Shown: one piece after another, positions 1 through 42,262 of the stretch
How positions within the stretch are numbered: position 1 is the stretch's first letter
Layout: every line of letters starts with the position of its first letter
Source: Candidatus Vogelbacteria bacterium RIFOXYD1_FULL_44_32
GTDB taxonomy: Bacteria > Patescibacteriota > Minisyncoccia > Phycocordibacterales > XYD1-FULL-46-19
DNA: 64,000 nt
Reading direction: 5' to 3'
Assembly: GCA_001823065.1 (NCBI GenBank)
Contig: MHTJ01000004.1
Span: 37,839-101,838 of the forward strand
The notes under the pieces: generated by a model
Seen by the model: the letters and a program-made list of their open reading frames with translations, nothing else
The model's database searches: none
What the model was told of the DNA's origin: nothing
Made by a program: the position numbers and the translations under genes

Positions 1-783
1 GTAAAAAAACCGCTTAATATTGCGGTGGTTGGAAAATATTTTGATTCGGGTGATTTCGTTTTGTCCGATGTCTATATTTCGGTGTTGGAAGCGCTAAAAT
101 TGTCGGCCTATCACAACGGGATAAAGCCGGTTCTAACTTATATCAATTCTAAAAATATTGAAACGGGAAAAATGAAGGTGGCCGAGCTTGCCAAATACGA
201 CGGCATTTTGGTCCCGGGCGGTTTTGGGACGGCTGGTATCGAGGGGATTATTAAAGCCATTCAATATGCCCGCGAAAAAAAGATACCTTATTTTGGTTTG
301 TGCTACGGTATGCAGTTGGCAGTGATTGAATATGCGCGACATATGGCGGGTATTACCGGTGCTACTTCGCGCGAAATCAATCCTGAAGCTAAAGAATTAG
401 TGATAGATATTATGGAGGAGCAGAAAAAATTGTTGGAGAATAAAAACTATGGGGGCACGATGCGCCTCGGGGCCTATCCAGCATATTTGAAAAAGGGGAC
501 GATTGCCCGTGGTGCCTACAAAGCCGAGATGGTGTCCGAGCGCCATCGCCATCGCTATGAGGTCAACAATGCCTATGTGGAAAAATTGGAAAAGGCTGGC
601 TTGGTTTTTTCTGGTACCTCGCCGAGCGGCAAACTAATGGAGATTGCCGAACTACCAAAATCAAAACACCCATTTTTTCTTGGTACCCAATTTCATCCCG
701 AATTTACCGCTCGACCTTTTGCTCCTCACCCCTTGTTTACCGAATTTGTGAAGGCGGCTAAGGCGAGAAGTGGGAAGAAATAA
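1..783 (+). CDS. pyrG: CTP synthase, C-terminal glutamine-amidotransferase part (5'-truncated by window edge)
   Basis: Frame 1 is open from base 1 and translates ...IAVVGKYF... The ORF carries the GATase signature GLCYGMQLAVIEYARH and RHRHRYEVN. Confidence 0.85.
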   Translation, partial: VKKPLNIAVVGKYFDSGDFVLSDVYISVLEALKLSAYHNGIKPVLTYINSKNIETGKMKVAELAKYDGILVPGGFGTAGIEGIIKAIQYAREKKIPYFGLCYGMQLAVIEYARHMAGITGATSREINPEAKELVIDIMEEQKKLLENKNYGGTMRLGAYPAYLKKGTIARGAYKAEMVSERHRHRYEVNNAYVEKLEKAGLVFSGTSPSGKLMEIAELPKSKHPFFLGTQFHPEFTARPFAPHPLFTEFVKAAKARSGKK

Positions 784-796
784 TTCAGACAATAAA

Positions 797-826
797 TCAG
801 GCCGCGCTCCGCGCGGCCTGATTTAT
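797..826 (+). terminator. Rho-independent terminator after pyrG
   Basis: Perfect hairpin tcaggccgcgc-tcc-gcgcggcctga followed by a weak T tract (atttatcc). Confidence 0.6.
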
Positions 827-876: not shown

Positions 877-947
877 TGCCAGATCGTCTAATGGTAGGAC
901 TTCGCCCTCTGAAGGCGAGTATCTTGGTTCGAATCCAAGTCTGGCAG
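877..947 (+). tRNA. tRNA-Gln (anticodon CUG)
   Basis: Cloverleaf folded by hand: acceptor TGCCAGA/TCTGGCA, U8, D stem GTCT/GGAC. Anticodon stem TCGCC/GGCGA with loop CT-CTG-AA. T arm CTTGG-TTCGAAT-CCAAG. U1:A72 pair and G73 discriminator match Gln identity; no encoded CCA. Confidence 0.8.
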
Positions 948-949
948 CT

Positions 950-1190
950 AGGAGTTTTTGGTAAAAAACGACGAGACAGCTAGACTTGGATTTGAACGGG
1001 AAAGGGGTCGGGGAAACGGGAGTTTCCCCGTGGTGGAGGCAGCGAAGCGTTGGAACCGCAAGGTGCCAAAGCGCAGTCCGCTTTCGGGCGGACGAGCAGG
1101 GGAGGTTCCAAGTCCCGCAGCTTTGCACCGAAAAATCAGAAATAGGGCCTTCTCAGGGGCAGTGGTAACAGTTGGAAAGTTCGGGATTAT
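950..1190. ncRNA. Candidate structured non-coding RNA downstream of tRNA-Gln (unassigned family)
   Basis: A ~240 nt GC-rich stretch in an otherwise AT-rich intergenic region, with no consistent ORF on either strand. It has a perfect hairpin ggggaaac-GGGA-gtttcccc (GNRA loop), a hairpin gtccgc-tttcgg-gcggac and further paired segments. Strand and class are unknown. Confidence 0.3.
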
Positions 1191-8305: not shown

Positions 8306-8312
8306 GACGCTC

Positions 8313-8439
8313 GGAAATGTTTTTCGGCGAGCACACATAATTTTCTGCTGAAAATTTGCTCTGCTCGGGCCGCCCGCCTGCCATGCGAGGCACGAGCGGG
8401 CAGGTCGCCCTTGCGCAAGGCTCGGCGAAAAACATTTCC
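8313..8439. repeat. Structured intergenic repeat, family A copy 1 (conserved core enclosed by 20-bp inverted arms)
   Basis: Arms ggaaatgtttttcggcgagc (8313-8332) and gctcggcgaaaaacatttcc (8420-8439) enclose the core cacacataattttctgctgaaaatttgctctgctcgggccg...tcgcccttgcgcaagg. The same core is found at 17191-17250. Confidence 0.7.
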
Positions 8440-8811
8440 TCGCTTAGTTGGAATAGAAACTTATTTGACTCAAACAGATGAAGTTTCCTGTTCGTCTCAT
8501 TGATTTTTAAACTAGCTCCCACGAAAGCGCCAAAAGGTGAGGGTTCGTTGGGGTGATGGGAAGAAGGGGGGGATTAAATACAGTTAATGAAAAGGCCACC
8601 AACCCCCCAAAAAACGCCCTAGACCGGACGTTTTTTGGAGGCAAAATTACCTTGACAAAACAGCATTTTATGTGCTAGGAATGGGTGGTACTTTTGATCG
8701 TTGAAATAACTCCGACCAGCCTATCGCTGGGCGGAGAACCATATAGATAGAAGAAGGGAAGAAGGAAAGAAACAAAGTTTTCGCCGTGAGGCTAAAACAG
8801 GAGGAAGCGTC

Positions 8812-22260: not shown

Positions 22261-22297
22261 CAAATTTTATAAGAAGTATATAAAGAGAGAAGATTTT

Positions 22298-22458
22298 TCT
22301 CGTGGGCGACGCCAGCAATGCCGCAACGTGCTGGGATGCTCCCTCCTTGTTTGTCGCCCACGAGAACCTTTGGCCACCTTTCCCTATCCGGAAGAGAGGA
22401 CTTGCTGGTTTTACCCCATTCCAGCTCCTTACTCTCTTTCGGATAGGGGTTTTATTTT
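22298..22458 (+). terminator. Two nested long inverted repeats downstream of glpK, the second ending in a T tract
   Basis: Inverted repeat tctcgtgggcgac/gtcgcccacgaga (22298-22365), and ccctatccggaagagag/ctctctttcggataggg (22382-22449) followed by ttttatttt. Confidence 0.5.
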
Positions 22459-22463
22459 GCCTA

Positions 22464-22491
22464 TTGACAAAAAAGTAGGGGGTGCTATAAT
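22464..22491 (+). promoter_or_regulatory. Consensus sigma70-type promoter (TTGACA-16nt-TATAAT)
   Basis: TTGACA at 22464-22469 and TATAAT at 22486-22491. Confidence 0.6.
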
Positions 22492-22497
22492 GGGGAT

Positions 22498-22790
22498 TGA
22501 ACAAGTGAATGACCAACTGACGGAAGGAGGTGATGTCTATGTTGGCCACGAAGTCCCTTGAACATTATTTTGATATGAAGACGACGGCAACCACCGCCAC
22601 GGCCTGACCGGCCATCGGCGCGCGCCCCAACAAACCGGGCATAGGGCCCGGGGAGGAATACCCATGAACATTCGGCGTCCGCGCGACTCAGCCGGCTAGG
22701 TACTCTAGCCATCTGCGTCGCAAATAAATTTGCCGTCCCCCGACCACGTGCCTTTATGGCAATCGCGCACGGGGGGCGGCTTTTCTTTTA
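22498..22790 (+). ncRNA. Candidate ~290-nt GC-rich transcript (promoter to terminator), possibly dual-function with a micro-ORF
   Basis: The unit starts at a consensus promoter and ends at the hairpin gccgtccccc...ggggggcggc plus a T tract (22732-22790). It is GC-rich with several internal hairpins and contains no long ORF. Confidence 0.3.
22539..22607 (+). CDS. SD-led 22-codon micro-ORF (MLATKSLEHYFDMKTTATTATA)
   Basis: AGGAGG at 22525-22530, 8 nt before the ATG at 22539; TGA stop at 22605. Confidence 0.25.
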   Translation: MLATKSLEHYFDMKTTATTATA

Positions 22791-23819: not shown

Positions 23820-24554
23820 AATATTGGACACCGAGTGTCCAATATTTTAAACTTATGATAATGAGAAAGATAAAAATTTGTGAGGGGGAGTATTATCACA
23901 TTTACAATCGTGGAGTAGATAAAAAAGACATTTTTATTGATAAACGAGATTACGCCCGGTTCTTATTTTGTGTTTTGTTTTTCCAATCGCCACTTTCATT
24001 AGTTAATCCTCCCTCCTATATTAATTATTTTATTGGACACTCGGTGTTCAATATTTCTCAAAAAATTAAAAAACAAATAATTAGTGATAAGTATGTTGAG
24101 TTGGTGTCTTTTATATTTATGCCCAATCATTTCCATTTAATTGTTAAGGAAAAGGTGGCAGGGGGAATTTCTCAATATATGCAAAGAATTCAAAATTCTT
24201 TTACAAAATATTTTAATACAAAATATAAAAAGAATGGGCATTTATTTCAGGGGCCATATCAAATTGTTTATATTGAAGATGATGAACAGTTACTTTATTT
24301 ATCATCATATATACATCGGAATTGTCGGGTACTTAATGGTTGGAAGAATAAGGAGGAAAAGTATCCGTGGTCAAGCTACTCTGATTTTTTAGGCCCAAAT
24401 CGGTTTGGTGGTCTATTAGAACCAGAAATTATTATGTCCGAATTTAATAATGCTGGTGATTATAAAATAGAGGTTCAAAACAGTGGCGCCAAAGAGATAA
24501 TTGAAGATTTATTAATTGATAATTGATAATATTGGACACTCGGTGTCCAATATT
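23820..24554 (+). mobile_element. IS200/IS605-family (or RAYT-like) element with 27-bp palindromic termini
   Basis: aatattggacaccgagtgtccaatatt at 23820-23846 and its reverse complement at 24528-24554 flank a HuH tyrosine-transposase ORF. Confidence 0.7.
23855..24526 (+). CDS. tnpA: IS200-like HuH tyrosine transposase (TnpA / REP-associated-like)
   Basis: HIYNRG, HuH motif MPNHFHLIV and catalytic-Tyr motif YIHRN. Start taken at MIMRKIKI. Confidence 0.75.
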   Translation: MIMRKIKICEGEYYHIYNRGVDKKDIFIDKRDYARFLFCVLFFQSPLSLVNPPSYINYFIGHSVFNISQKIKKQIISDKYVELVSFIFMPNHFHLIVKEKVAGGISQYMQRIQNSFTKYFNTKYKKNGHLFQGPYQIVYIEDDEQLLYLSSYIHRNCRVLNGWKNKEEKYPWSSYSDFLGPNRFGGLLEPEIIMSEFNNAGDYKIEVQNSGAKEIIEDLLIDN

Positions 24555-24601
24555 TTGTTTTTCTAGAGAAGATGTAAAGTCTTTATGGTAGAATAGGAGG
24601 A

Positions 24602-32363: not shown

Positions 32364-32436
32364 GCCGGCATAGCTCAGTTGGTAGAGCGCCACTTTTGTA
32401 AAGTGGATGTCCGGGGTTCGAACCCTCGTGCCGGCT
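32364..32436 (+). tRNA. tRNA-Thr (anticodon UGU)
   Basis: Cloverleaf: acceptor GCCGGCA/TGCCGGC, D arm GCTC-AGTTGGTA-GAGC, anticodon stem CCACT/AGTGG with loop TT-TGT-AA, T arm CGGGG-TTCGAAC-CCTCG. Confidence 0.85.
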
Positions 32437-32570
32437 CAGAGAGACGACAAAGCAAGCAAACTGCTTTGCTTGTGTGAGGGTGAGAAAAGATTTTTGTTGT
32501 TTTTCCAGCCGGGAAAATCAAAAATCTGGGGTTGAGGAAAAAACTTTTGGCGAAAAGTTTTTGAGGTGAC

Positions 32571-32592
32571 CGAACCCTCGTGCCGGCTCAGA
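32571..32592 (+). repeat. Exact 22-nt direct repeat of the tRNA-Thr 3' end (att-like)
   Basis: cgaaccctcgtgccggctcaga occurs at 32419-32440 (within/after the tRNA) and again at 32571-32592. Confidence 0.8.
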
Positions 32593-41849: not shown

Positions 41850-41860
41850 CATCTTGCCCA

Positions 41861-41894
41861 CAAAAAATCCCGACTACTGGTCGGGATTTTTTGT
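41861..41894 (+). terminator. Rho-independent terminator
   Basis: Hairpin aaaaaatcccgac-tact-ggtcgggattttttg. Confidence 0.85.
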
Positions 41895-42007
41895 GGTTGC
41901 AAATGCTTGACCCAGCCCCTGCCCAGGCCGAGGGCGGGTGCCGAATAGGCACATCTCCCTTGTGTGTGAAGCGCGAGGCCGTATGACCTCTGGGGCTTGG
42001 GTATTAG

Positions 42008-42228
42008 GGCGCTCGCCTAGCTTCCCTTTCAAAACACATCGCCACACCTCTAGAGGTGTGGCGATTCTGCTCCACCGTGGCCGTTTGGCCTTGCCCCTGC
42101 TGGGGCAAAATACCTAAGGCCAAAACCCTGCCGGCCGACAGCTCCGCAAGGTTTTGGAAAGGGAACTAGGCTCACTAACTCGAAAAAGATAAATGGTCAG
42201 CAAAAGGAGTAAGCTCGCTGGGTTGGGG
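42008..42228. repeat. Structured intergenic repeat, family B copy 1
   Basis: Shares a ~170-nt core with 51637-51810 and 54513-54690 (cctttccaaacaca...ctgctccagcggggccgtttggcc...ggccaaaaccctgccggccg...ccgcaaggtttggaaaggg...ctcgctgggttgg). This copy has an extra ~35-nt insert before the 3' tail. Confidence 0.75.
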
Positions 42229-42262
42229 GATTACGAAGCGCGCAGTAGAGCTTGTCTTAGGG

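Follow-up and report, generated by a model that had tools for sequence, protein, structure and literature searches.

We analysed a window of 64,000 nucleotides from contig MHTJ01000004.1 of Candidatus Vogelbacteria bacterium RIFOXYD1_FULL_44_32. Near the start of the window the 3' end of pyrG is followed by a terminator, a tRNA-Gln(CUG) gene, a structured non-coding element at 979-1122 and a NUDIX hydrolase gene on the same strand (Table 1). The element has a core bracketed by two arms, of which the 5' arm is an inverted copy and the 3' arm a direct copy of the 3' part of the tRNA gene. It belongs to a family whose members share the core helices, are linked to tRNA genes in a strand-specific manner and carry inverted and direct copies of their targets.

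A first-pass annotation had marked 948-1190 as a GC-rich, hairpin-dense non-coding region that might be a novel structured RNA co-transcribed with the tRNA. Its description of the segment was borne out. The GC fraction in 100-nt windows was 0.54-0.65 over 951-1150 and 0.40-0.48 in the flanks, and the sole open reading frames (ORFs) across the segment overlap one another on both strands. The hairpin ggggaaac-GGGA-gtttcccc was found exactly, at 1010-1029, and is extended to 9 bp by C1009-G1030 (chance expectation ∼0.01 matches per window, even with three mismatches allowed); the gtccgc/gcggac hairpin is a 7-bp helix with a UUCG loop. The annotation had been unable to match the segment to transfer-messenger RNA (tmRNA), RNase P RNA, signal recognition particle (SRP) RNA or 6S RNA, and the programs gave the same answer: ARAGORN and Rfam 15 recognised the tRNA alone, and lowering the Rfam cut-off from the gathering scores to E ≤ 10 added noise only. 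The boundaries had to be redrawn, as the conserved element runs from 979 to 1122 and its core from 998 to 1103. The center of a palindrome that starts inside the tRNA occupies 949-978, and 1123-1190 is flanking sequence that is part of a separate local duplication.

Table 1. Coordinates of the features around the tRNA-Gln gene at the start of the window.
Feature	Position	Strand	Remarks
pyrG, 3' end	25-783		window start
Terminator	792-826		perfect, 16 bp; between pyrG and tRNA-Gln
tRNA-Gln(CUG)	877-948	+	ARAGORN; Rfam tRNA model 61.3 bits; CCA not encoded
tRNA-Gln T-loop	928-934		cloverleaf reading
tRNA-Gln T-stem, 3' strand	935-939		cloverleaf reading
tRNA-Gln acceptor, 3' strand	940-946		cloverleaf reading
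tRNA-Gln discriminator	947		G947; cloverleaf reading
Long imperfect palindrome	927-997	+	tRNA from G53 of the T-arm to its 3' end, linker, inverted copy
Linker (palindrome center)	949-978	+	small A/U hairpin at ∼954-969
5' arm	979-997	+	reverse complement of the tRNA T-loop, T-stem 3' strand and part of the acceptor 3' strand
Helix P1	983-990 with 1107-1114		8 bp; inverted repeat I16
R1 covariance-model match	990-1079	+	66.4 bits, E = 5e-17; sole copy in the 64-kb window
Core	998-1103	+
J1	998-1008	+	purine-rich junction GGGAAAGGGGU; nearly invariant in the family (alignment A4)
P2 hairpin	1009-1030	+	CGGGGAAAC-GGGA-GUUUCCCCG; inverted repeat I14
J2/3	1031-1049	+	UGGUGGAG; GUGG-N-GGAG counting G1030 of P2; N = U1034
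Mini-hairpin within J2/3	1042-1048	+	GCGAAGC
P3 hairpin	1050-1069	+	UUGGAACC-GCAA-GGUGCCAA; predicted by folding; A1061 is the proposed tertiary partner of U1034
J3/4, P4, J4/1	1070-1103	+	J3/4 AGCGCA, J4/1 GAGCAGGGGA; from the sequence and the predicted fold
P4 hairpin	1076-1093	+	GUCCGCU-UUCG-GGCGGAC
3' arm	1104-1122	+	degenerate direct copy of the tRNA 3' end: GGTTC-----CAAGTCCCGCAGCT, against GGTTCGAATCCAAGTCTGGCAGCT in the tRNA

Core fold and distribution of the family

Relatives were sampled through pyrG from 80 GTDB genomes, all of them Patescibacteria (Paceibacteria, Kaiserbacteria, Nomurabacteria and similar). A homologous segment lies directly 3' of tRNA-Gln(CUG) in L003, L009 and L048 (pyrG identity 92%, 69% and 64%), and most relatives with tRNA-Gln near pyrG are without it. 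Three loci without the element (L064, L073 and L007) have in common a short motif, GACAATAG(G/A)GG, a few dozen bases 3' of tRNA-Gln. The window and L003 have the element at the same site, yet their P3 and P4 are of different subtypes.

A covariance model of the core, R1 (82 positions, built from 55 sequences), found only four matches in ∼0.7 Mb of pyrG-linked Patescibacteria DNA, every one after tRNA-Gln. Metagenomes were searched with a motif taken from the conserved core, AAGGGN{0,1}TCGGGRAAN{6,22}CCGTGGNGGRR, and at least 119 contigs matched it, against a chance expectation that we estimate at ∼8. In the first 100 of these motif-selected contigs the strong R1 matches scored 42-94 bits, and several contigs held extra copies (three in L167; two each in L098, L129 and L145). 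Viral contigs gave nine matches to the core pattern, about the chance level, all of them non-significant with R1, and a BLAST search of phage genomes with 949-1243 gave no match. Rfam scans of 12 member loci (E ≤ 1) returned tRNAs only, and no description of the element family turned up in full-text searches of the literature. R1 can now be used to mask or annotate the element, which gene callers mis-annotate as a hypothetical protein of 78 amino acids (aa), as seen in L001.

The conserved core is ∼85-110 nt long across the family. It opens with J1 (GGGAAAGGGGUC) and continues with P2 (GGGRAAAC-loop-GUUUYCCC), J2/3 (GUGG-N-GGAR, sometimes with a small hairpin) and P3 (...RAAACC-loop-GGUUUY...). 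There follow 'GGA' or 'RCGCA', the variable hairpin P4, often a GCGAAGC mini-hairpin, and then 'GAC' or 'GAGYAGUGA'. In the window, 1070-1103 fits the subtype '...RCGCA-[P4]-GAGYAGUGA...' of L164, L117, L130 and L172. Judged from the alignment, the core folds as a single strand into a hairpin junction (P2, P3 and usually P4) with purine-rich linkers, and folding of 976-1124 by itself predicted P1, P2, P3 and P4 around one junction.

Covariation was measured in helices P2 and P3 on 110 distinct sequences. Paired bases occupied 94% of the alignment cells of the two helices, and at most 69% when the partners were slid by one to three columns. Changes on both sides were present in 12 of the 17 pairs, and the number of double-change cells (167, against 36 in shuffles) was reached in none of 500 shuffles. 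P2 was 99.5% paired and its fourth pair alternates between A-U (87 sequences) and G-C (20), and all eight pairs of P3 showed changes on both sides across the family. P2 and P3 therefore have the compensatory changes across homologues that are asked of structured RNAs in general. The folding energy was unremarkable by itself (z-score -0.82 for 949-1243 and -1.36 for 976-1124), so the case for the structure rests on conservation and covariation rather than on energy.

The variable nucleotide N of J2/3 was also compared with the last nucleotide of P3 loops of four nucleotides. The two made a Watson-Crick fit in 53 of 59 such loops, by three pair types (C-G 36, U-A 14, A-U 3), a signal that subfamily structure could inflate. 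The pair, U1034-A1061 in the window, is a candidate tertiary Watson-Crick pair. A T-box-like tRNA sensor was considered for the same motif (UGGN) and rejected, as N showed no consistent pairing with the tRNA discriminator in six copies inspected by eye (window, L003, L009, L048, L092 and L095); N tracks the P3 loop rather than the discriminator. Likenesses to SRP domain IV, RNase P P4 and the tRNA-like domain of tmRNA seen by eye, to group I P4-J4/5-P5 (through GGGAAAGGGGUC) and to hepatitis delta virus-like and hammerhead cores failed on conserved positions or on family variation. A G-quadruplex was rejected too, since its fourth G-tract is a variable loop in the family.

P1 was weak or absent in a good share of copies, and 28 scored ≥20 in an unbiased alignment. 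A search for P1 based on RNAduplex was too noisy (median -22.9 kcal/mol observed, -19.9 in controls), and exact-match statistics were used instead. The GCGAAGC heptamer recurs in the family (e.g., L116, L150, L119, L120 and L208), either as P4 or within the portion of the 3' arm that corresponds to the T-loop (UAGCGAAGCG). As DNA the heptamer folds into a mini-hairpin of unusual stability, and its recurrence might hint at a single-stranded DNA stage.

The first-pass annotation had proposed to look for conservation and covariation downstream of tRNA-Gln in related genomes, and both are there: relatives conserve the element at the same tRNA-Gln flank, and P2 and P3 show compensatory changes. It had allowed that relatives might lack any conservation or that the region might be a decayed protein-coding fragment; the region is conserved and the 78-aa ORF is not. 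Of the novel structured RNA that it suggested, the structure, the conservation, the non-coding nature and the absence from Rfam stood. A dedicated RNA gene tied to tRNA-Gln did not, as the members form a dispersed, multi-copy family that occurs behind 17 tRNA specificities, tmRNA and ordinary genes.

Flanks copied from the proposed insertion site

Flank statistics were computed on 92 non-redundant copies with sufficient flank, and for the tRNA-linked copies tRNAs swapped between loci served as controls. A same-strand tRNA ended ≤140 nt upstream in 52 of the 92 copies, covering the 17 amino-acid specificities, and an opposite-strand tRNA in none; tmRNA was found upstream of two further copies (L190 and L201), 71 nt away. 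The 5' arm (∼30 nt before the core) matched the reverse complement of its own tRNA exactly over at least 10 nt in 34 of these 52 copies and in 7 of 156 controls, and this inverted copy starts at G53 of the T-arm in nearly all cases. The 3' arm matched the 3' end of its own tRNA over at least 12 nt in 29/52 copies, compared with 3/156 controls, and in some cases the direct copy continues through the CCA and the trailer (48 nt in L119, 35 nt in L142, 31 nt in L117). At the positions that tell the tRNA and the 3' arm apart, the 5' arm was complementary to the tRNA 154 times and to the 3' arm 9 times.

Copies at non-tRNA sites showed a corresponding arrangement. The core was bracketed by a direct repeat of at least 14 nt in 16 of 40 such copies and in none of 120 controls. 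The repeats ranged from ∼14 to 85 nt, with the longest in L102. In L146 the repeat was the end of the upstream ORF including its stop codon, and the bases directly ahead of the core were the reverse complement of the beginning of this repeat. The T-loops of tRNA and tmRNA genes are the preferred sites, and the 3' ends of ordinary genes are used too.

In 55 tRNA-linked members the stretch from the T-loop to the core formed one imperfect palindrome (median 71% mirrored, 32% when shuffled), and in L009 and L096 this palindrome is an almost perfect hairpin of 64 and 96 nt, respectively. Many family members have a hairpin like an intrinsic terminator between the tRNA and the core, and this 'terminator-like' hairpin is therefore the center of the palindrome. 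The layout of the element can be written as X [a..h] loop [h'..a'] CORE [a..z] Y, that is, the upstream 3' part, its mirror, the core and a second direct copy. Such flanks carry duplication signatures typical of insertion.

The copy in the window follows this layout. The two arms of its palindrome, 927-945 and 979-997 (inverted repeat I1, 19 nt), are 89% complementary, and 17 of the 19 positions of the 5' arm still match the live tRNA. The arms are paired with each other in the minimum-free-energy fold of 870-1124 (z-score -4.1), and in the predicted fold of the tRNA-plus-element transcript the 3' half of the tRNA pairs with 979-997 rather than P1 forming. The linker varies in sequence among L003, L009 and L048, yet it is hairpin-forming every time. 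The direct copy is 88% identical to the tRNA over 934-949 and 1107-1122 (direct repeat D3). This 3' arm has decayed through a 5-nt deletion and two substitutions, and for this reason P1 has just 8 bp in the window.

Similar flanks were seen around other sequences. The other tRNA of the window, tRNA-Thr(UGU) at 32364-32437, is followed by an insertion of ∼130 nt (within 32364-32592). On either side of it stands the same 22-nt sequence from the tRNA 3' end, repeated perfectly and in direct orientation (32419-32440 and 32571-32592), and the insertion includes a palindromic linker along with a short inverted copy, GAGGGT. This insertion was rejected as a family member; the flank layout is the same, but the A/U-rich core is not homologous (R1 score ∼1) and has no other copy in the sequences compared. 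L029 (4868-5040) and L021 (6586-6760) have the same arm layout behind tRNA-Gln(CUG) with different, unrelated cores, in the order acceptor 5' strand, hairpin, T-stem/anti-T-loop, core and direct copy of the tRNA 3' end. These two loci suggest that the flank architecture is broader than one core family. In a sample not selected for the element (L003-L082 and the window), an exact copy of the tRNA's own 3' end of at least 11 nt was present within 350 nt downstream of 8 of 65 tRNAs and upstream of 1 of 65, which makes the 3' flanks of tRNAs duplication hot spots in this clade.

Between the tRNA-Gln element and the NUDIX gene lies a second, separate local duplication, in which a direct repeat of ∼30 nt (1119-1148 and 1203-1230) encloses a 54-nt segment (1149-1202) that is missing from the close relative L003. 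A -10-promoter-like motif, AAACTATAG, is located at 854-862, ∼15 nt upstream of tRNA-Gln, and a second copy, at 1232-1240, ends a few bases short of the NUDIX ATG; L003 has TGTTAAAAT at the equivalent place. The NUDIX gene's own -10-like element (TGCTAAACT; ∼1226-1234) lies a few bases 5' of the ATG. Given a -10-like element so near the ATG, the NUDIX gene looks leaderless. In L003, 2890-3400 holds ∼500 nt between pyrG and tRNA-Gln without counterpart in the window. This extra stretch includes two units, each running from a promoter-like to a terminator-like site, has no Rfam match at E ≤ 0.1 and could encode two unknown non-coding RNAs. The gene map of the window is otherwise tightly packed and strongly plus-strand-biased, apart from four intergenic gaps of 400-770 nt (8306-8811, 22261-22787, 23832-24601 and 41850-42262) that gave no Rfam or R1 match.

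Mobile element, small RNA or scar

We read 979-1122 as one copy of a dispersed, non-coding family of Patescibacteria that is of insertion type, probably mobile and non-autonomous, and that landed behind tRNA-Gln; we put the probability of this at roughly 0.55. Fold-back copying combined with template switching would yield such a succession of direct copy, inverted copy, core and direct copy, along with duplications that vary in length. The arms would be products of fold-back synthesis on the target and of later changes of template, to a single strand with the core and back. In such a scheme a 3' end, having extended along the target as far as h, would snap back and copy itself to a', the growing end would jump to a single-stranded template (RNA or DNA) bearing the core, and it would then return to the target at a. 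The polymerase may be a reverse transcriptase with an RNA core as its template, or an enzyme of repair or replication that uses single-stranded DNA. The universal T-loop sequence could provide microhomology for the jumps, which would explain both the preference for tRNA and tmRNA genes and the junctions at positions 53 and ∼57-60. The covariation would then be due to selection acting on the single strand that propagates, or on an RNA product, and individual inserted copies such as the one in the window with its decayed 3' arm may be inert.

Several points weigh against this interpretation. The template-switch scheme was reconstructed from anatomy alone. No empty and filled site pair from near-identical genomes was obtained, and a search through NUDIX homologues found no synteny. 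No mobilizing enzyme was found either: clustering of the neighbor genes within 3 kb gave unrelated housekeeping genes only, with no transposase, integrase or reverse transcriptase. The metagenome set was picked by the conserved motif, so that the conservation of the core is partly ascertainment. In a test of strand, G.U and A.C mismatches in P1 stood at 24:13 (p ∼0.1). Finally, about four copies without arms (L115, L139, L147 and L155) sit exactly between the 3' end of one tRNA and the +1 of the next, and these look like a processed small-RNA gene rather than an insertion.

By analogy, the closest known systems are the tRNA-linked repeat and RtT RNA of E. coli for position, small non-autonomous bacterial repeats for lifestyle and retro-copies made by template switching for the flanks. 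RtT RNA (RF00391, tyrT operon) is non-coding and lies directly 3' of a tRNA gene, in units that end in a copy of the 3'-terminal nucleotides of the tRNA. The element, too, is non-coding, lies 3' of tRNA genes and closes with a sequence copied from the 3' end of the tRNA, and the tandem units of RtT may be compared with L167. To our knowledge, however, RtT is confined to one enterobacterial operon and has no multi-helix core common to different tRNAs, no inverted tRNA copy and no non-tRNA sites, and RF00391 was absent from permissive Rfam scans of the window and the 12 member loci.

Miniature inverted-repeat transposable elements (MITEs), REP/REPIN, Correia/NEMIS, Rickettsia palindromic elements and ERIC resemble the family in being short, geneless, non-coding, dispersed and hairpin-forming, and in lying mostly between genes at gene ends. 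As in MITE-type families there are many dispersed copies (at least 119 contigs) with no conserved ORF through the core and no linked gene. MITE-type families have conserved terminal inverted repeats and a target duplication that is absent or short and fixed, and neither of these features was found. In our element the center is conserved, whereas the arms are site-specific and copied from the site, one inverted and one direct, with duplications of ∼14-85 nt.

Short interspersed nuclear elements (SINEs), U6-L1 chimeras and the tRNA hybrids of the Mauriceville retroplasmid are retro-copies made by target-primed reverse transcription and template switching, and all are eukaryotic or organellar. 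They share with the element a structured core like a small RNA, variable target duplications, local inversions (compare twin priming) and the involvement of tRNA sequences. The element differs in having no poly-A tail; its RNA intermediate is putative, and no partner reverse transcriptase was identified, although the host genomes were not searched for one. Group I introns also occur in tRNA genes of Patescibacteria, where they are inserted in the anticodon loop (positions 35/36) and are recognized by group I models (PMC13011429). They are structured RNA elements tied to tRNA genes in the same phylum, but the element lies outside an intact tRNA, is far smaller and has no group I match at E ≤ 10.

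The strongest competing explanation, although a distinctly less probable one, is a true small-RNA gene family that is transcribed with or just after tRNAs, freed by the tRNA-processing enzymes and has a role in the cell; the duplications would be the way in which paralogues arise. P1 and the 3' arm would then imitate the acceptor/T-stem minihelix and the 3' end of the neighboring tRNA, RNase P would cut the 5' side, the 3' side would be left to RNase Z or the CCA-adding enzyme, and the product would be stable and cloverleaf-like. E. coli RtT RNA offers a precedent, as it is probably freed from tRNA-linked repeats by tRNA processing. The covarying core with its proposed tertiary pair and the strict orientation to the tRNA agree with such a gene. 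So do the copies without arms, which fill the tRNA-tRNA spacer exactly: the 3' end of their core (...GAC) abuts the +1 of the next tRNA, so RNase P would define it. In L048, L101 and L029 the outer portion of P1 reproduces all seven base pairs of the acceptor stem.

Much of the family fits a small-RNA gene poorly. Its distribution is patchy, with the element in 4 of the tRNA-Gln-bearing relatives among the 80 pyrG loci, and many copies lie behind ordinary ORFs with direct repeats as long as that of L102. The 5' arm is complementary to the live tRNA rather than to its supposed P1 partner (154 positions against 9), P1 itself is often weak or missing, and in the co-transcript the 5' arm is predicted to sequester the 3' half of the tRNA. 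A terminator-like hairpin often stands ahead of the core. The insertion and the small-RNA explanations could also both hold, for an expressed RNA that is retro-copied as well. As a tentative proposal that stays well short of even odds, the family would consist of a protein-less, structured, single-stranded core that homes to the T-loops of tRNA and tmRNA genes and enters the chromosome through fold-back priming and template switching, and/or of a new small RNA or ribozyme that owes its maturation to the tRNA-processing enzymes, as the two are not mutually exclusive.

The remaining explanations fared far worse. Integrase attachment (att) sites at tRNA 3' ends, as used by islands and cis-mobilizable elements (CIMEs), resemble the element in that the inserted DNA lies between direct repeats of the 3' part of the tRNA. 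The element could on this basis be an attL...attR scar, left by an integrase-mediated island or prophage in the 3' end of tRNA-Gln and mostly deleted later, as in a CIME-like remnant. Repeat D3, the excess of downstream tRNA 3' duplications in the clade and the perfect repeat at tRNA-Thr are what such a scar would leave. An insert of ∼150 nt without an integrase is unlike these systems, however, and so is the presence of one structured core of ∼85 nt at 17 tRNA specificities, tmRNA and non-tRNA sites, with no integrase or other recurrent gene within 3 kb. Integration does not explain the inverted copy and the palindrome, and covarying hairpins are unexpected in att arms. We regard an integrase scar as very improbable and largely refuted.

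A cis-regulatory leader or riboswitch of the NUDIX gene was suggested by the position of the element, which precedes NUDIX on the same strand in three loci (window, L003 and L009). The variety of contexts refutes it: genes downstream of family members are unrelated to one another, no gene adjoins the element in L048, and the nearest downstream ORF is on the same strand in 31 cases and on the opposite strand in 21. The NUDIX gene, moreover, has its own -10-like element and looks leaderless, and the homologues looked up (76-83% identity) stand in other gene contexts with no tRNA-Gln upstream. Likewise refuted are a divergent copy of one of the housekeeping RNAs named above and a small protein gene (the 78-aa ORF, 958-1194). 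The segment is GC-rich and structured and one gene caller annotated the ORF in L001, but ARAGORN had no match, Rfam gave none besides the tRNA at gathering scores and only noise over 700-1400 at E ≤ 10, and several copies occur per contig. The frame is interrupted in L009 and L048, and just 14 of 109 members keep it open over 70 aa or more.

If it is mobile, the element would represent a previously undescribed kind of bacterial element, a bacterial counterpart of SINE-like or retro-copied elements, and its flank pattern points to an insertion chemistry that is uncatalogued in bacteria. It would then also be a way into the study of genome plasticity, the evolution of tRNA genes and possibly reverse transcription or repair in uncultured Patescibacteria. 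If expressed, it would be a new, widespread class of non-coding RNA with a defined fold. The Patescibacteria make up a large share of bacterial diversity and have tiny, streamlined genomes, yet they seem to put up with multiple copies of a structured element whose target is the most conserved part of tRNA genes.

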